This document shows, piece by piece, positions 13,659 to 39,642 of a stretch of 64,000 nucleotides of DNA. Every line of letters begins with the position of its first letter. Positions within the stretch are counted from its first letter, which is position 1. Origin of the DNA: a phage; the sequence record OZ335963.1, one strand, 5' to 3'. The translations under genes and the position numbers were made by a program. Under the pieces are notes generated by a model. That model was not told the origin of the DNA and made no database searches. It saw nothing but the letters and a program-made list of their open reading frames with translations.

Positions 13659-13979
13659 TTATAGCGTAATCCATTCTCGTATTGTCTGAGTTACTACACG
13701 TTCACGGGGCTCGACTAGTTCAACAGTCGGAACTGCATAATACCAGTCAGAATGGTAAGAACCTGAGCGAGATTCATTTACAGACACATGAACGTTATGT
13801 TTTGGACTAAAATAAACACACTGCCGATATTGGCATTTGCCATCTTGTACCCAATCTTCTATTTCGACAGGTTTAAGATAATCCGAAAAATCGAAATCAT
13901 AATTTTCTGAAAATGCATCATGGTCTTCGATGATTTCACTCAGAACTGCATCAACATCTAATTTATTTTCAATAGTCAT
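13659..13979 (-). CDS. Hypothetical protein, 106 aa
   Basis: ORF in the 49 to nrdC interval. Confidence 0.5.
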   Translation of the reverse strand: MTIENKLDVDAVLSEIIEDHDAFSENYDFDFSDYLKPVEIEDWVQDGKCQYRQCVYFSPKHNVHVSVNESRSGSYHSDWYYAVPTVELVEPRERVVTQTIREWITL

Positions 13980-14284
13980 TTGTCACACCACCAATTCGAT
14001 ACTTCAAAATCAGGTTCACCGTTTTCCCAATACCAAGGACCCACCGGATGCCAATCACCATGCTCATCTTCTTCAAATTCTTCAGATTCAAGCCCAACAT
14101 ATTGCCATTGGACTTCATAAGCGGTATCACCGATTACAACCGTGTTCTCACCATACGGATTAGCCACAACAAAGTCAATACCTTCTGCTTTAGCCAACCA
14201 AACCATGTATTCATAGAGTTTATATTCTAGGTCGTCTTCGGTGCCATCACCTAGAAAAATGGTTTGTTCGTTTAACCCAATCAT
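13976..14284 (-). CDS. Hypothetical protein, 102 aa, Trp-rich acidic
   Basis: ORF in the 49 to nrdC interval. Confidence 0.5.
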   Translation of the reverse strand: MIGLNEQTIFLGDGTEDDLEYKLYEYMVWLAKAEGIDFVVANPYGENTVVIGDTAYEVQWQYVGLESEEFEEDEHGDWHPVGPWYWENGEPDFEVSNWWCDK

Positions 14285-14469
14285 AATTCCACCATAAATT
14301 CAAATAACTGGTCGCGTACACAAGTATCAGTCCAACCCCATTCGTTGGCTTCTTCTTTTAACCAATCCGGGAGATTTGCTAATACGGTTTCTTTACTAGG
14401 GGCAGGAGTATCAAACTCTCTCGCCAACTCTCTTGCGCAGGTTTTATAGGCCATATCAAATTCAGTCAT
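14281..14469 (-). CDS. Hypothetical protein, 62 aa
   Basis: ORF immediately downstream of nrdC with a 4-nt overlap. Confidence 0.45.
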   Translation of the reverse strand: MTEFDMAYKTCARELAREFDTPAPSKETVLANLPDWLKEEANEWGWTDTCVRDQLFEFMVEL

Positions 14470-14972: not shown

Positions 14973-15276
14973 TTTCTTCTCGGTCAAATCGGTGTTTGCA
15001 ATGACGACATTTATAACGAAGATTACTAGTCTGCCAATGGACTAATTGAACCTGTTCAGTACCGCATTCAGGACAATTAGGAACGTTTTTAGAAGCCCTT
15101 TCGCGACGTTCAACCATAGCCATAATGGCATCCCAAGCTGGAGGTTTAAAGTCTAAATCATCACAATCATGAATCTTTCCACGCATTTCCAGATCGTCTT
15201 CTTCACCAGCCATAATAATTTTAATTAGACTGGAATTACTTGAAGCTGCGATATCTTCTAATAGACGCTTTTTCAT
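14959..15276 (-). CDS. Zinc-ribbon protein, 105 aa
   Basis: CPECG...(about 17 aa)...CRHCKH four-Cys motif. Confidence 0.5.
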
Positions 15277-16202
15277 TTTAATACCTCAATAGCATTACGT
15301 AAACCATTTGCTTTTGCATTAAGAGCTTTTAACAATTTGGTGTGTTCGGCAATCTGGGCTTCAACTTCAATTAAGCGAGCATTGAGATATTCACGTTCTT
15401 CGCTCAAGTTATCAATCTTTTCTACTTTAGGCTCTTTTACAACTGTCTTATATGTATTAGGGTTCTTCAGTTTAATTAGAATGCGTGAACTGTATAACAT
15501 TGAACCATTATCTTCGGTTTCGTCATACATTTCTACTACGTCCATGATTTTTAGCATCATGCGGAGTTTATAAGACAACGAACGAATAGTTTTGTTGTGC
15601 TTATTAATTTCTTTAGAGTTCATGGTGCCGAGATTACGTGAGTAATAATAAGGAACCTGGATATCAATTGACAATGATGCGTTACCATTACCAGTTGGTT
15701 TGAATACTGCAGTAACCCAATCTTTAACATGAACTTTATTTGTACGGTCATCGCCAGCGGTAAATAGTTTACGAGCATGCTTAAAAAGCATATTCACTTG
15801 GTCATTGAATTGACAAGAGAATTTATCAGCAAATTTAGTTTCAGGAATGGTAGATAGCCAATCAGCCAAATGGGTCTTTTTAACATCGTTAACAATAGTA
15901 AATTCAACCAAATCGGTTATAGATGTCGTAGATTTAATGAAGCTCGGCTTCATAAAGTTTTTAATGTTATCGCGAGCTACAGTAGAAGATAACATACGAG
16001 AACGTTTAAACCATTCAAGCAAATTGCCTAATGAATGAGAATAGGCGTTCTGAGTATCTTTACAGATATGATTTTCCTGGCCAACATATTGAAGGAAATC
16101 ACGAAGAATATTATTGATTACTGCTCTGTGTCCGATATTATAATTACGGTGTTTAGTAATAAGACTGTCAAAATAATCAATATAATGTTTACGAGTTTTC
16201 AT
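15273..16202 (-). CDS. Hypothetical protein, paralog family member A (309 aa), C-terminal coiled coil
   Basis: Shares MKTR N-terminus, FKP..N.SLSI and K.MDVV motifs with ORF 17314-18342; heptad-like C-terminus. Confidence 0.6.
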   Translation of the reverse strand: MKTRKHYIDYFDSLITKHRNYNIGHRAVINNILRDFLQYVGQENHICKDTQNAYSHSLGNLLEWFKRSRMLSSTVARDNIKNFMKPSFIKSTTSITDLVEFTIVNDVKKTHLADWLSTIPETKFADKFSCQFNDQVNMLFKHARKLFTAGDDRTNKVHVKDWVTAVFKPTGNGNASLSIDIQVPYYYSRNLGTMNSKEINKHNKTIRSLSYKLRMMLKIMDVVEMYDETEDNGSMLYSSRILIKLKNPNTYKTVVKEPKVEKIDNLSEEREYLNARLIEVEAQIAEHTKLLKALNAKANGLRNAIEVLK

Positions 16203-16254
16203 GTTCTTCTCACTTGGTTAATGATTTATACTCCGAGCCATCCATGGCTTTAAA

Positions 16255-17256
16255 TTACTTAATTAACTGTAAAGCTTGTTCAAGACGATCCAGGCGATTA
16301 ACAGATTCTTCCCAAATCCTTTTAGCCTGCTCATAATCTTTCTGCGCTTTATTAGAAATTTCTAGAGCTTCTTTATAAGCTTTTTCTAATGCAATAACTT
16401 CTGGACGAATTTCTACCGATTCAGGTGAATCATCAAGATTATCCATTAGTTCCTCAGGGGTAGTTTCTTCTTTAGGAGTATTCACAATTTCCTCACATTT
16501 TTGTTGATAAATTTCTTTATCAGTCGGTGAGTACGCGCACTTTACTTCACGAAGACTAACTACAATTTTGTATCCTTCCCAACCGCACATATTTTTAAAA
16601 GGATAAGTATAAATATTTTCTACTGTTTCCATACAAAGTAGTGCAGTCTCTAATTGACGAGTTATATCGCTAGCGATTGAGAAAAATTTATTAATGTTCT
16701 TTTGATTAGCTTCTGGTGTAAAAAATTCATAATTCACAAAAATAGCTGCTTTATTTTTATCAAGCTCATATTCTTTTATGATAATCATATCAGAAGCCCA
16801 AGGATGGATTTGACGATAATCGCCATAGCATAATTTAGAAGCTGATTTTAGAATTTGCTTCTTGAAAAGTCTAAAATTACTAATCCAACGACGAGTAAAA
16901 ATATTCTCAGGGTCTTCTTTAATATTAAGATGATAAGAATTAACATCACCGAACCAATTGTATCCTACTACATCTTTAGTTCGTTTAATTTCTTTCCCAA
17001 ATTTACTAAGAATATCTTGATTAACTAAATATGAAAGAAGACGAGACCCTTTAAAGGTTTCCTTAATATCATCTTTATATTCGCGACTAGAAATTTTATG
17101 AACTTCATGAATAAATTTGTTGGAAGAAACAATACTTGCATCAGTATTATTGAGCCATTGATTGATAATGGAAATAACACTATTCTGACTAGACATAGGT
17201 TTAACTTTATCATCAATAACACTATTGAACGATTTGATATATTCGTTACGAGTCAT
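16255..17256 (-). CDS. Hypothetical protein, paralog family member B (about 333 aa), C-terminal coiled coil
   Basis: Track ORF 16255-17307 overlaps a promoter; the ATG at 17256 has a GAGGAG RBS. Shares the F(K/R)KQ.LK..S.AS.L motif with member C. Confidence 0.6.
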   Translation of the reverse strand: MTRNEYIKSFNSVIDDKVKPMSSQNSVISIINQWLNNTDASIVSSNKFIHEVHKISSREYKDDIKETFKGSRLLSYLVNQDILSKFGKEIKRTKDVVGYNWFGDVNSYHLNIKEDPENIFTRRWISNFRLFKKQILKSASKLCYGDYRQIHPWASDMIIIKEYELDKNKAAIFVNYEFFTPEANQKNINKFFSIASDITRQLETALLCMETVENIYTYPFKNMCGWEGYKIVVSLREVKCAYSPTDKEIYQQKCEEIVNTPKEETTPEELMDNLDDSPESVEIRPEVIALEKAYKEALEISNKAQKDYEQAKRIWEESVNRLDRLEQALQLIK

Positions 17257-17284
17257 ATTAATCTCCTCAGTAGAAAGTAAGAAC

Positions 17285-17314
17285 ATTATACCACATCCTT
17301 GTGGCAAAGTAAAC
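17285..17314 (-). promoter_or_regulatory. Early-type promoter (GTTTAC -35, TATAAT -10)
   Basis: Plus attata ... gtaaac; on the minus strand GTTTAC, about 18 nt, TATAAT, just upstream of paralog B. Confidence 0.45.
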
Positions 17315-18342
17315 TAGTTTAGTGCATTTAGTGCATTGTTCAGTTTAGAACGTTGCTTCGTGAGATTTTTGACTTTTTCTTGAGCTTTTTCTAGCATCTT
17401 TTCAGCTTCTAACACTTCATTAGTTGCTTTAACGAGTTCATCATCTACTGCCTTGATAGACTTCTCAATCGCATCTGCATGCCATTTTTCAACAGGTTTA
17501 AGACTCGGATTTTCAACAGGAAGAAAATTCGCTTTATTGAATTTCCATGCATCCTTATTACCTGAACTATACATCCAAAATTTAGGATCGTTTGATGAGC
17601 AATTGGATAAATTTAAGTTATAGTTATCTTGTACTTCCTGCTTTTTCTCTTGCGGGATTTCGTCCTTTCTCAAAAAATCATATTTAAATGAAACGATCAT
17701 ATCAAGTTCATATGTTGTTGTGTCTAATTTAAATCGTTCGAAATGCTGTGAAATCTTAGACTGAACAGCAGCAACAACATCCATATACTTAAATGCTTCT
17801 GTCAACTGCGATTTAAGGCATTCGCAAATTGAAAGAGAATTTTTTGTATTAGGTTTAAAGCTAATTCGTGCAGTTCTATTATTTTCTTTTAATGGTCTTA
17901 CTTCCATCTGAAGAGTATAACCATCAAATTTCAGATTCTTTAAATTAATGTCAGAACCTTTTAATCGACTAGCCGTCGACAAAATTTGTTTTAATTGTTT
18001 ACGGAATAGAGCAATAAATCTCCATTCAATACGATAATGATTTGGATTGAAAAATCCAGATGATAAATCGACCTTACTTTGACCAACGCCTTGAACAAAT
18101 AGAGGATTTTTATAATCAATAGTTTTACAGAAATCGGTGAGCTGCTCACGAGCCGTCATTTGTGTAATATACCCCGCTTTACTAAAATTACTCACCCATT
18201 CACTGCTATTTAGATATTTAAAGTGATGAATAGCACGATTAACTTTATCAGGGTCTAAATTATTTTCACACAAAAATGTCATAACATTACGAGTATCGCT
18301 GGCAGTACGAACCATATCTTCAATTTGAGAACGAGTTTTCAT
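17314..18342 (-). CDS. Hypothetical protein, paralog family member C (342 aa), C-terminal coiled coil
   Basis: Motifs shared with members A and B (see above). Confidence 0.6.
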   Translation of the reverse strand: MKTRSQIEDMVRTASDTRNVMTFLCENNLDPDKVNRAIHHFKYLNSSEWVSNFSKAGYITQMTAREQLTDFCKTIDYKNPLFVQGVGQSKVDLSSGFFNPNHYRIEWRFIALFRKQLKQILSTASRLKGSDINLKNLKFDGYTLQMEVRPLKENNRTARISFKPNTKNSLSICECLKSQLTEAFKYMDVVAAVQSKISQHFERFKLDTTTYELDMIVSFKYDFLRKDEIPQEKKQEVQDNYNLNLSNCSSNDPKFWMYSSGNKDAWKFNKANFLPVENPSLKPVEKWHADAIEKSIKAVDDELVKATNEVLEAEKMLEKAQEKVKNLTKQRSKLNNALNALN

Positions 18343-18350
18343 GGTGTTCC

Positions 18351-19241
18351 TTAAGATTTAAGTAAATCAACAATTTTAATTAACTTTTCACGCTCAGATT
18401 TAGCTTTACTACTCAATCCAGATAGTCTGAAAATTTCATCATCATATTGTTGAATAGAAATATTCAGCTCTTCAATTTGCTTATTAAAATAATCAATTTG
18501 TTCAGAATGTTTTTCATTACTACTAATTGGTACAGGTTTCGTAGGTAATGTAGTTGAACTGGATTCATCCGGGCGGTAAATTAAAATACAACTTGAACCA
18601 ATAGGGCATTTTGCACCAGATGAATATTCTAATGTTCCAGATTCTTTTAAAACTTCAAAAGCTAAACAGAGATGATGCCCCATATTAACATAATCTGTGG
18701 AGCGAGCTCTGATGTAATAATCATCGCCACGAATACTAAATTTAAAGCATTTAAGGTCTTCCGTATTATTGGTCTTAAAAATCATTTGTTTATCTAGACC
18801 TTTAGCTAATCGAGCGCCTAATGCTAATAATCGTCGTTGATTTTCCCACAAATCCGCAATCATTTGATCGAATGATAATTTCGGCATTAGTCGACCATAA
18901 AGGTCATATCCTTTATTATAATTACGAAGGATTTCACTCGCGTTAATACGAGACAATGCTCCAATTTTATTAAGAGCTTTCATAATGCGATTAGATAAAC
19001 TCATTCCAGACCCATTTGTTCGCTGTAAATGTTTTTCTAATCCAAATCCAATATCAACTTTAAACTTATCTAAAATTTCTGCATGAACATCTCTGTCGAT
19101 AACATTCAAATCCAAAGTTGGGTTAAATCTATGAAAAAATTTATCTGGCTCTGCACTGCGAAATACAGTCCATTCATTCATCATTTTTTTATTAACTAAA
19201 GATTTAATTACTGCATTGACATTATTAATTACTACTGACAT
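18351..19241 (-). CDS. Hypothetical protein, paralog family member D (about 296 aa), C-terminal coiled coil
   Basis: Track ORF 18351-19256 starts at TTG; the ATG at 19241 has a GAGGAAAA RBS. Weaker similarity (NQRRLLALGARLAKG region). Confidence 0.5.
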   Translation of the reverse strand: MSVVINNVNAVIKSLVNKKMMNEWTVFRSAEPDKFFHRFNPTLDLNVIDRDVHAEILDKFKVDIGFGLEKHLQRTNGSGMSLSNRIMKALNKIGALSRINASEILRNYNKGYDLYGRLMPKLSFDQMIADLWENQRRLLALGARLAKGLDKQMIFKTNNTEDLKCFKFSIRGDDYYIRARSTDYVNMGHHLCLAFEVLKESGTLEYSSGAKCPIGSSCILIYRPDESSSTTLPTKPVPISSNEKHSEQIDYFNKQIEELNISIQQYDDEIFRLSGLSSKAKSEREKLIKIVDLLKS

Positions 19242-19252
19242 ATTTTCCTCAC

Positions 19253-19660
19253 TCAATCAATTTCAATTTTACTAAATATACAGAATAAGATGGAACAGAC
19301 TATATAAGCACCACACACAGATTGAACTAATACCATTCCAAAGAACCAAACAATATTATCAAACAATGTCTGTTTTACGTCGAAAGGACGTAAACTTACA
19401 GTAATATTATCACCTTTTTCTATTGAAGAATACATCTCTGGGGAAATATATTCACTAAATCTATAACCGTCTTTGAGTTCATATACGGCAATAAACGATA
19501 AACTAGACCCTTTTCCTTGTGTTCCTGTAATGGTATTAACTACAGTAACATCATAATCTTTATAATGCATATAATCATTAATTGCGTAATAACCATATGC
19601 AACTACTACACATAAACAACATATCAATAAATTCAATCTTCTAATTATCAACCGTTTCAT
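19253..19660 (-). CDS. Membrane protein, 135 aa
   Basis: N-terminal and C-terminal hydrophobic helices (LLICCLCVVVAYGYYAI; VWFFGMVLVQSVCGAYIVCSILFCIF). Confidence 0.55.
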   Translation of the reverse strand: MKRLIIRRLNLLICCLCVVVAYGYYAINDYMHYKDYDVTVVNTITGTQGKGSSLSFIAVYELKDGYRFSEYISPEMYSSIEKGDNITVSLRPFDVKQTLFDNIVWFFGMVLVQSVCGAYIVCSILFCIFSKIEID

Positions 19661-38810: not shown

Positions 38811-38886
38811 TGGTCGAGGCAGTAGGGATCGAACCTACGACCTAGGACTTAGAAGGTCCTTGCTCTTCCTTCTGAGCTATGCCTCG
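38811..38886 (-). tRNA. tRNA-Arg (anticodon UCU)
   Basis: Hand-folded cloverleaf; anticodon loop CTTCTAA; T-loop GGTTCGATC; CCA encoded. Confidence 0.85.
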
Positions 38887-38890
38887 TATT

Positions 38891-38965
38891 TGGCGGACAT
38901 GCATGGATTCGAACCATGGACCAATTGATTAACAGTCAACTGCTCTACCACTGAGCTACACATCC
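38891..38965 (-). tRNA. tRNA-Asn (anticodon GUU)
   Basis: Hand-folded cloverleaf GGATGTG...; anticodon loop CTGTTAA; T-loop GGTTCGAATCC; CCA encoded. Confidence 0.7.
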
Positions 38966-38969
38966 AAAT

Positions 38970-39056
38970 TGGTGGGGAGTGATGGAGTCGAACCACCCGA
39001 GTCGCAATGACAATGGATTTACAGTCCACACCGCTACCTCTACGGGATAACTCCCC
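38970..39056 (-). tRNA. tRNA-Tyr (anticodon GUA), long variable arm
   Basis: Anticodon loop CTGTAAA; long variable arm as in bacterial tRNA-Tyr; CCA encoded; D-arm is atypical. Confidence 0.55.
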
Positions 39057-39069
39057 TTAATTCTTAATT

Positions 39070-39144
39070 TGGTGGCCCTGGGTGGAATTGAACCACCATC
39101 TGGCGATTATGAGTCGCTTGCTTGAACCTTCCAGCTACAGGGCC
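39070..39144 (-). tRNA. tRNA-Ile (anticodon CAU; Met/Ile not distinguishable from sequence)
   Basis: Anticodon loop CTCATAA; Ile assigned by analogy with T4 tRNA-Ile. Confidence 0.75.
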
Positions 39145-39145
39145 T

Positions 39146-39221
39146 TGGTGCTGATTGACGGAATCGAACCGCCGACATCCTCATTACAAGTGAGGTGCTC
39201 TACCTACTGAGCTAAATCAGC
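39146..39221 (-). tRNA. tRNA-Thr (anticodon UGU)
   Basis: Cloverleaf GCTGATT...; anticodon loop CTTGTAA; CCA encoded. Confidence 0.85.
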
Positions 39222-39226
39222 AAAAC

Positions 39227-39316
39227 TGGCGGAGGCGATAGGATTTGAACCTATGAGTCGCCGGAGCGACTGCCGGTTTTCAAGACCGGTGCATTAAACC
39301 ACTCTGCCACGCCTCC
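39227..39316 (-). tRNA. tRNA-Ser (anticodon UGA), long variable arm
   Basis: Cloverleaf GGAGGCG...; anticodon loop CTTGAAA; CCA encoded. Confidence 0.85.
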
Positions 39317-39318
39317 AG

Positions 39319-39392
39319 TCTCCGCGGCAGGATTTGAACCTGCGACATTCTGCTCCCAAAGCAGACGCTCTACCAAACTGAGCTACACGGAG
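39319..39392 (-). tRNA. tRNA-Pro (anticodon UGG), CCA not encoded
   Basis: Cloverleaf CTCCGTG...; anticodon loop TTTGGGA; abuts tRNA-Ser as in the T4 Pro-Ser dimeric precursor. Confidence 0.85.
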
Positions 39393-39402
39393 TAAATTAA
39401 AT

Positions 39403-39476
<74 letters not shown>

Positions 39477-39481
39477 AAATT

Positions 39482-39568
39482 TGGTGCGAGAAGTGGGACT
39501 CGAACCCACAAGGAAATCATTCCGCAGCATTTTAAGTGCTGTGCCTTTACCAATTTGACCATTCTCGC
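39482..39568 (-). tRNA. tRNA-Leu (anticodon UAA), long variable arm
   Basis: Cloverleaf GCGAGAA...; anticodon loop CTTAAAA. Confidence 0.85.
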
Positions 39569-39569
39569 G

Positions 39570-39642
39570 CTGGGAATAAAGGACTCGAACCTTTGCATCT
39601 AGCAGTCAAAGTGCTATGCCTTACCAACTTGGCTAATTCCCA
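39570..39642 (-). tRNA. tRNA-Gln (anticodon UUG), CCA not encoded
   Basis: Cloverleaf TGGGAAT...; anticodon loop CTTTGAC; first tRNA of the cluster. Confidence 0.85.

Follow-up and report, generated by a model that had tools for sequence, protein, structure and literature searches.

Background

The closest described counterparts of the genes treated here are nrdC.3, nrdC.4, nrdC.5 and nrdC.6 of bacteriophage T4, one of which (nrdC.5) acts against a bacterial defence protein. Srikant, Guegler & Laub (eLife 2022) reported that an evolved T4 deletion clone is unable to infect ECOR17, or MG1655 with the ECOR17 dsr1 gene, and that nrdC.5, expressed alone from a plasmid, restores T4 plating on dsr1+ cells; Dsr1 itself is a SIR2-domain defence protein that depletes NAD+ (PMC9391042). 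According to a preprint (2026), Dsr1 senses phage major capsid proteins through a TPR domain with homology to the sensor domain of Avs7 (PMC12803255). Another SIR2 defence, DSR2, is triggered by a phage tail tube protein and counteracted by DSAD1 of SPbeta-like phages. In published structures, DSAD1 reportedly occupies the sensor region of DSR2. Here, we compare with these systems a block of four genes (15273-19256; hereafter A, B, C and D) in a 64,000-nucleotide stretch of phage DNA (sequence record OZ335963.1; the whole stretch is hereafter called the window), for which an earlier note made from the sequence alone had proposed an array of diverged paralogues.

The interpretation that we favour, and that we consider probable rather than secure, is that A to D are the nrdC.3-nrdC.6 block, that the four belong to one fast-evolving superfamily of T-even phages, and that C counters Dsr1 while its paralogues are proposed sensor-blocking binders.

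Results and discussion

Identity of the four genes

The window has a base composition of ~35% G+C, and the minus strand carries most transcription across its first 45 kb. When 15273-19256 was compared with Tequatrovirus (T4-like) genomes, 95-96% nucleotide identity to many of these was observed, and 657 phage records matched in all; phages pSs-1 and UGKSEcP2 are ~95% identical to the window at the nucleotide level. By these comparisons, the source of the window is a Tequatrovirus.

The listing of open reading frames (ORFs) confirmed that A to D are four consecutive minus-strand genes (Table 1). The length range of 296-333 amino acids (aa) given by the earlier note held at its lower end and is slightly too short at its upper end, as C is the longest of the four. 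In the annotations of phages ime09 and T4, A, B, C and D are named nrdC.3, nrdC.4, nrdC.5 and nrdC.6, respectively, and the block is flanked by nrdC, nrdC.1 and nrdC.2 on one side and by nrdC.7-nrdC.11 on the other. Identity to the T4 proteins is 62% for A, 88% for B, 92% for C and 96% for D; for C, this amounts to 92.2% over residues 1-333, and the order nrdC.4 - nrdC.5 - nrdC.6 is as in T4. Where the earlier note had suggested checking the T4 nrdC.x genes as possible homologues, annotation, identity and synteny thus assign A to D as the orthologues of T4 nrdC.3, nrdC.4, nrdC.5 and nrdC.6, i.e., as these genes themselves. An established T4 annotation, which that note had held would speak against its proposal, therefore exists in part, in that the genes are already annotated under these names. 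Longer readings of B are possible from two other starts (ATG 17286 or TTG 17307); T4 NrdC.4 is annotated with a length of 333 aa.

Scans of A to D against Pfam, NCBIfam and PHROGs returned only matches to families of unknown function. A and B match the same PHROG, phrog_1435 (E=4e-114 and E=6e-164, respectively, both over profile positions 1-334); C matches phrog_2351 as well as Pfam DUF7235 (PF23882; E=8e-125, 416.8 bits vs a cut-off of 30, profile positions 1-307), and D matches phrog_2257 (E=3e-150). Among precomputed domains, PF26899 is present on 105 of 105 D homologues, and PF26897 is found on P0056, a fusion protein with NrdC.3 as its C-terminal half (described below).

The T4 reference nrdC.6 (NC_000866.4, 4008-4894) is annotated at 275 aa. 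Compared with D, it shows a frameshift after residue ~259 that replaces the conserved coiled-coil tail, whereas the gene in the window is intact; the original T4 tail is still encoded in another frame, with 97% identity to D. The frameshift reflects either an error in sequencing or a mutation of the laboratory strain.

Table 1. Positions in the window of the four genes, their common elements and a candidate promoter
Feature	Position	Strand	Details
A, nrdC.3 orthologue	15273-16202	minus	309 aa; from ORF listing; non-T4 allele class
B, nrdC.4 orthologue	16255-17256	minus	333 aa from ATG 17256, the start used in T4
C, nrdC.5 orthologue	17314-18342	minus	342 aa; from ORF listing
D, nrdC.6 orthologue	18351-19241	minus	296 aa from ATG; TTG 19256 would give 301 aa
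Best-conserved family core block, in C	17962-18030	minus	residues ~105-127, F..LFRKQLKQILSTASRL
Core-block equivalents in A, B and D			A FNDQVNMLFKHARKL, B FRLFKKQILKSASKL, D LWENQRRLLALGARL; collinear in hhalign and 22-sequence MAFFT alignments
C-terminal heptad helix of A	15276-15422	minus	last 49 aa; contrast 0.57, p=0.0025
C-terminal heptad helix of B	16258-16404	minus	last 49 aa, ends RLEQALQLIK; contrast 0.60, p<0.0005
C-terminal long helix of C	17317-17493	minus	residues ~284-342, after KPVEKWH, ends KLNNALNALN; contrast 0.76, p<0.0005
C-terminal helical hairpin or coiled coil of D	18354-18506	minus	residues ~246-296, after PVP..SNEKH, ends KLIKIVDLLKS; contrast 0.66, p=0.0005
Sigma-70-like promoter match	17285-17313	minus	TTTACT, 17-bp spacer, TATAAT with TG; C/B (nrdC.5/nrdC.4) junction; consensus scan only

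Homology of A, B and C

All of the sequence motifs cited in the earlier note were recovered. These include the MKTR start of A and C (B begins with MTRNEY), the F(K/R)KQ-type motif of B (FKKQILKSASKL) and C (FRKQLKQILSTASRL), with the common core KQIL..AS[KR]L, the FKP..N.SLSI motif of A (FKPTGNGNASLSI) and C (FKPNTKNSLSI), and the K.MDVV motif of A (KIMDVV) and C (KYMDVV). Pairwise BLASTP among A to D yielded one significant pair, A-B (25% identity, 226 aa, E=1e-5), and no other. While this paucity would suit the view that the motifs of these AT-rich phage ORFs coincide by chance, without common descent, or that the ORFs are not genes, we give that view next to no credence, as the profile-profile comparisons and the conservation of the ORFs already refute it.

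For the profile-profile comparisons, orthologues were gathered from other genera, a phmmer matrix sorted them into four orthology groups, and small family alignments (3-18 sequences) were compared with hhalign. A-B aligned with 97.5% probability (E=9e-12, 210 columns), A-C with 92-94% (E=2e-7 to 7e-7, 120-237 columns) and B-C with 60-94% (E=1.5e-7 to 9e-5, 126-249 columns). As coiled coils inflate such scores, hhalign was repeated without the C-terminal helices and with reversed-template controls. The signals from the cores alone were smaller than the full-length signals but still there (E=9e-12 for A-B, 4e-5 for B-C, 5e-4 for A-C, and 1e-4 for B and J, the single-copy protein of Klebsiella phage Clarke_MM3). 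Reversed templates all gave P of at least 0.04, and a family of 256-aa proteins encoded nearby in Kanagawavirus and Klebsiella phages, which is unrelated and was used as a further control, gave <1% probability against every group. The similarity of the paralogues thus goes beyond chance, with profile-profile E-values reaching 1e-7 to 1e-12 and clean controls. Moreover, the ORFs are conserved in >650 phage genomes, and their ratios of nonsynonymous to synonymous substitution (dN/dS, 0.04-0.35) indicate purifying selection on proteins; A to D are therefore real proteins under selection.

When 22 sequences representing six groups were aligned with MAFFT, the alignment was collinear and contained four common blocks, i.e., ..K.[GS].LS...A...L.NFGK, F..[QE]F..N...LLA...RL..G, a helix with L..AL..M[DE].V, and P[VI]E..H followed by heptads and by KL..A...LK at the extreme C-terminus. 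Taken together, the alignments identify A, B and C as homologous.

Placement of D

That D is more diverged than the other three, as the earlier note had it, was borne out by hhalign. Direct C-D similarity was weak (E=8e-4 to 3e-3, 9-24% probability, 58-64 collinear columns, from thin alignments; E=8e-4 with the cores only), and A-D and B-D were at noise level. These values, together with the placement of D in a family of its own by both Pfam and PHROGs (PF26899 and phrog_2257) and the observation that tail modules can fuse to other N-termini (P0167, see below), are the grounds for an alternative in which only A, B and C are homologous and D is an unrelated protein that shares with them only a convergent or recombined C-terminal coiled-coil module. 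We judge this alternative improbable, since an intermediate family connects D to the others. K2, a profile built from the single-copy genes of the Kanagawavirus phages IME523 and PEi20 and of the Mosugukvirus phage PM2, matched D with 95.7% probability (E=8e-9, 170 columns) and C with 96.9% probability (E=2e-10, 226 columns); J also matched C (E=3e-10). With the coiled coils removed, the D-K2 match persisted (LLALGARL..G....FKT, E=3e-5), as did the C-K2 match (E=1e-3), and the former hence lies outside the coiled coil. A hidden Markov model (HMM) of K2 only, built without any window sequence and run against the 92 window ORFs of at least 80 aa, ranked D (5.5e-8) and C (2.5e-5) first, followed by B (0.024), the next ORF being at 0.5.

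The alternative also has to contend with a C-D match that, weak as it is, is collinear and falls within the two-block region linking A, B and C, with an order of predicted elements that is identical in C and D and three significant structural neighbours that the two have in common (see below), and with gene position, length and a terminal ...LLK signature that are all alike. Because K2 matches both D and C, we place D in one superfamily with A, B and C; the similarity outside the coiled coil is direct for A, B and C, and for D runs via K2 only. The DUF7235 model, which matches C, reaches the single-copy Klebsiella (45.1 bits) and Kanagawavirus (30.7 bits) proteins via the tail only (cut-off of 30).

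C-terminal helices and predicted structure

Each of the four proteins ends in a heptad-like helix, as had been described from the sequence. The heptad contrast of the last 49 residues, compared with shuffles (mean of 0.22), was greater than in the shuffles for all four proteins (p of at most 0.0025), and all four have the tail signature KL..A...LK in common.

AlphaFold2 models were considered for C (mean predicted local distance difference test score (pLDDT) 66.6, predicted template modelling score (pTM) 0.50, with core residues 57-226 mostly at pLDDT 70-90) and D (pLDDT 76.5, pTM 0.65). Both models have an identical order of elements. N-terminal helices come first, then a segment of two helices (C 105-127, D 124-145), a unit of the order strand-strand-helix-strand-strand (C 144-219, D 166-222), a linker predicted to be disordered and the long terminal helix. 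The two-helix segment corresponds to the core block of the alignments; the terminal part is predicted as one helix in C (284-341, pLDDT 81-91) and as two in D (246-272 and 278-295). Foldseek searches of BFVD with D found, beyond its own orthologues, IME523 (3e-7), PM2 (3e-7), Cronus (Erwinia; 4e-4), Merlin (Citrobacter; 5e-4) and Mineola (Klebsiella; 7e-4), with further matches to three Acinetobacter phages and Yersinia phage fHe-Yen9-01. C gave only four significant matches, including Cronus (4e-7), Mineola (2e-6) and Merlin (4e-4), so that Cronus, Mineola and Merlin are significant neighbours common to both models. These predictions favour a common fold of C and D but fall short of proof. 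No enzymatic domain or solved structural relative was found for the family in the domain libraries or by structure search, in line with the earlier failure to recognise an enzymatic motif.

The C model also gave sub-threshold Foldseek matches in BFVD to tail-completion, tail-terminator and head-tail-connector proteins (E 0.006-0.08, probability 0.4-0.84). These matches are not significant; they are intriguing since DSR-type sensors recognise virion proteins.

Overall, the alignments and models suggest a common plan in which a poorly conserved N-terminal helical part would be followed by a helix with the motif K-x-G/S-x-L-S...A...L-x-N-F, the two-helix segment with F..F...N...LLA..xRL..G, a small beta-beta-alpha-beta-beta unit, a disordered linker rich in insertions and deletions, and a P-[VI]-E..H motif leading into a heptad helix of 45-60 residues that would end the protein (KL..A...LK).

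Copy number, probable exchange and divergence

When the C profile was searched exhaustively with HMMER against 1.84 billion representative proteins, 13 matches were obtained, all of them T-even relatives or fragments; none of these connected C to A, B or D, and none came from outside T-even-like phages. A search of IMG/VR for related loci gave five loci, all from close Tequatrovirus. By these searches, the family is narrow and restricted to T-even-type phages. Within this range, copy number rises with closeness to T4. Kanagawavirus, Mosugukvirus and a Klebsiella phage have a single gene; Gaprivervirus and Dhakavirus have three copies (D, C and B-type), as does Mosigvirus (D, C and A-type); and Tequatrovirus, the only genus with both A- and B-type genes, has four (D, C, B and A). 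Gaprivervirus, Dhakavirus and Mosigvirus infect E. coli. In the single-copy lineages, the gene lies in the same slot as the arrays, with the nrdC.9/nrdC.10 block upstream of it and the nrdC.2-nrdC genes immediately downstream, and no nrdC.8 is annotated in those genera. A and B look like alternative occupants of one slot that later came to stand side by side, and the history of the family may have run from one ancestral copy to three and then to four.

A is ~80% (78-82%) identical to the Mosigvirus gene and only 62-64% identical to the type found in T4, T2, T6, RB27 and RB55. Two allele classes of nrdC.3 thus occur in Tequatrovirus, and the class represented in the window is 88-97% identical among many phages. 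C and D, on the other hand, are only 24-31% identical between Tequatrovirus and Mosigvirus. The closeness of A to the Mosigvirus gene against this background argues for a contribution of exchange between lineages to the array, and not only of duplication in place. The tandem duplication put forward in the earlier note is therefore upheld insofar as the paralogues are real, while simple in-place duplication does not seem to be the whole story, as genera carry D and C plus either an A- or a B-type gene in one slot and the A allele is nearer to Mosigvirus.

The rapid divergence that the note had also proposed is evident at both levels of comparison. Between genera, amino-acid identity is 24-27% for C, 31-50% for D and 45-52% for B, as compared to 83-89% for gp49, 82-87% for NrdC, 78-79% for NrdC.10 and 78-84% for NrdC.11 among the flanking genes. 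Among Tequatrovirus sequences, A has a dN/dS of 0.23-0.35, B of 0.19-0.23, C of 0.17-0.20 and D of 0.04-0.15, as compared to 0-0.14 for conserved neighbours. The pressure on A, B and C is clearly relaxed or diversifying.

Several individual sequences depart from the four-gene arrangement. P0056 (a metagenomic/ENA protein of 299 aa) is a natural in-frame NrdC.5::NrdC.3 fusion without nrdC.4, in which the middle of NrdC.5 is joined to the C-terminal half of NrdC.3 (~17520-17910 joined to 15273-15800 in window terms). In one of the IMG/VR loci (L004, IMGVR_UViG_2974742932_000001), nrdC.4 is only 53% covered. This fusion and this partial gene indicate that the gene content of the array varies among close relatives. 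P0167 (173 aa, from an 803-bp ENA contig) combines 120 unrelated N-terminal residues, which are not encoded in the window, with the last 52 residues of the window NrdC.5 at 100% identity, and is the product either of tail-module shuffling or of chimeric assembly. P0058, the NrdC.6 homologue of Shigella phage Sf25 (378 aa), contains an internal tandem duplication of 82 residues (IRAHSTDYVNMG...NKQIEEL repeated), which may be real or an assembly artefact.

Function

In a partial literature search, functional data on any of the four genes were found in one paper only (Srikant et al. 2022). C is very likely an anti-Dsr1 factor by orthology to T4 NrdC.5 (92% identity, same locus), the activity having been demonstrated for the T4 allele. 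The host-interaction or anti-defence role that had been suggested for the whole array is hence supported for C, as its 92% identical T4 counterpart restores infection of Dsr1 cells, and would extend to A, B and D by inference only.

As to mechanism, we propose that the proteins of this family are non-enzymatic binders made early in infection, in which the C-terminal coiled coil would oligomerise the protein and the variable globular part would bind a host immune sensor and block it ahead of the appearance of its trigger. The target of NrdC.5 would probably be the TPR sensor of Dsr1 or its SIR2 domain, and A, B and D may have diverged to neutralise other host factors. As the TPR sensor of Dsr1 binds a phage structural protein, a pre-emptive binding inhibitor is plausible by analogy with DSAD1 and DSR2. 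In an extended and distinctly tentative form of this proposal, nrdC.3-nrdC.6 would be a modular inhibitor array derived from a single ancestral scaffold that is conserved across T4-like phages, with a variable head for sensor binding, then a flexible linker and a coiled coil for oligomerisation. In E. coli phages, the scaffold would have been duplicated and exchanged between genera, with each paralogue or allele class now neutralising a different immune sensor and Dsr1 being the first of these to be identified. If so, the composition of the array would help to set host range.

Several points weigh against the interpretation of A to D as one superfamily with anti-defence functions. The direct hhalign comparisons of D with A, B and C are not significant alone (probability of at most 24%), and the link of D depends on an intermediate family and on thin alignments (3-18 sequences). 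The strong E-values owe much to the C-terminal tail, and this tail might conceivably be a module that has been shuffled, P0167 and P0056 being examples of tail fusion. The likeness of the predicted C and D folds is one of element order and common neighbours, and the model of C is of only moderate confidence (pLDDT 66.6). A physical interaction between NrdC.5 and Dsr1 is not reported in the accessible literature, so the effect could be indirect. Finally, the dN/dS of D within Tequatrovirus (0.04-0.15) marks it as well conserved, a pattern that fits an arms-race gene less well.

Alternatively, the family might have a general role in host takeover or phage physiology, with its members acting as scaffolds or adaptors on host or phage machinery, and rescue by NrdC.5 might be indirect, e.g., through an altered timing or level of the Dsr1 trigger or through NAD+ metabolism. 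The strong conservation of D is compatible with such a role, as is the occurrence of a single-copy homologue across several T4-like genera, with structural relatives that may extend to Acinetobacter, Aeromonas and Erwinia phages, a range broader than the inhibition of one particular E. coli defence gene would lead one to expect. We nevertheless regard a general role as unlikely, if less so than an unrelated D, because plasmid-borne nrdC.5 alone is sufficient for plating on dsr1+ cells and the genes are dispensable in laboratory hosts, having been deleted in evolved T4 clones (PMC9391042). The extreme divergence between genera (24-52% identity), the allele classes and the variation in copy number are, in addition, typical of host-range or counter-defence loci. 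A counter-defence family, with C directed against Dsr1, thus remains the interpretation that we favour.

Rejected candidates and other features of the region

Weak matches of A residues 30-86 (15945-16115, minus strand) to the tyrosine-recombinase N-terminal SAM-like domain (NCBIfam PRK00283, E=0.0015; XerD, 0.012; Pfam Phage_int_SAM_1, 0.085) were rejected, as they were far below cut-offs (13.6 bits vs 22.3 for Pfam; 13-18 bits vs cut-offs near 300 for XerC/XerD of NCBIfam) and occurred in one of 22 family members. Matches to Cas6b_C, AAA_23 and coiled-coil families were far below cut-offs and did not recur among members. nrdC.8 (175 aa, with a helical C-terminus) was considered as a fifth member and rejected, with hhalign probabilities of at most 1% against every family.

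The nrdC region of T4 is an early region, and the earlier note had likewise placed the array in a phage early region. A scan of the region for sigma-70 and terminator consensus sequences gave a match total not above that of shuffles and thus lent no independent support to early transcription. The single sigma-70-like match at the junction of C and B (Table 1) may possibly be an internal promoter, albeit a weak candidate, and would then favour the 333-aa start of B; a terminator-like hairpin (17289-17306) overlaps this match. An Rfam scan of 13-22 kb found no RNA family.

Between 49.2 and nrdC, two small minus-strand ORFs of 102 and 62 aa (13976-14469) lack counterparts in all five of the Tequatrovirus loci compared and are 82-93% identical to Gaprivervirus/Dhakavirus genes, which we read as another probable sign of inter-genus mosaicism in the region. 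Farther away, ten tRNA genes (Arg-TCT, Asn, Tyr, Met, Thr, Ser, Pro, Gly, Leu and Gln) are located at 38811-39642 on the minus strand, and this cluster accounts for a peak in G+C content at 38-40 kb. It has two tRNAs more than the T4 reference, which has eight.

Comparison with known systems

The genes described here are long-annotated T4 genes, an anti-defence role has already been published for one of them, and they represent no new kind of system. The additions made here are modest and consist of the superfamily link, the common architecture, the expansion from one to three to four copies, and the pattern of alleles and exchange; no paper stating these was found, with partial coverage of the literature. 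NrdC.5 is one of a small number of counter-defence proteins of T4 whose target is known, and the architecture it has in common with its three neighbours, together with the growth from one to four copies with allele classes and exchange, gives it a family context that is testable. The databases split the family into DUF7235, PF26897 and PF26899 and into PHROGs 1435, 2351 and 2257, and these entries could be merged into one clan.

Among known proteins, T4 NrdC.5 is the nearest to C, with which it shares 92% identity, length class, position between nrdC.4 and nrdC.6, and the DUF7235 match (417 bits); the differences, a few percent of substitutions plus insertions and deletions in the linker, are not substantive. 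T4 NrdC.3 and NrdC.4 (phrog_1435) and NrdC.6 (phrog_2257; PF26899), all annotated as hypothetical, have their orthologues by sequence and synteny in A, B and D, with the difference that A belongs to the second allele class and is only 62% identical to T4 NrdC.3. The single-copy genes of Enterobacter phage IME523 (QEA10564.1), Edwardsiella phage PEi20 (gp089), Pectobacterium phage PM2 (gp092) and Klebsiella phage Clarke_MM3 (CDS0213) resemble the window genes in slot, length (309-337 aa), blocks and terminal coiled coil, but are present in one copy rather than in an array, and their proteins are 13-27% identical to those of the window. DSAD1 is a functional analogue of the inhibitor proposed here, being a small non-enzymatic phage protein directed against a SIR2-NADase defence; it differs from NrdC.5 in host (Bacillus), in the defence protein countered (DSR2 rather than Dsr1) and in protein architecture, and no homology between the two is claimed.

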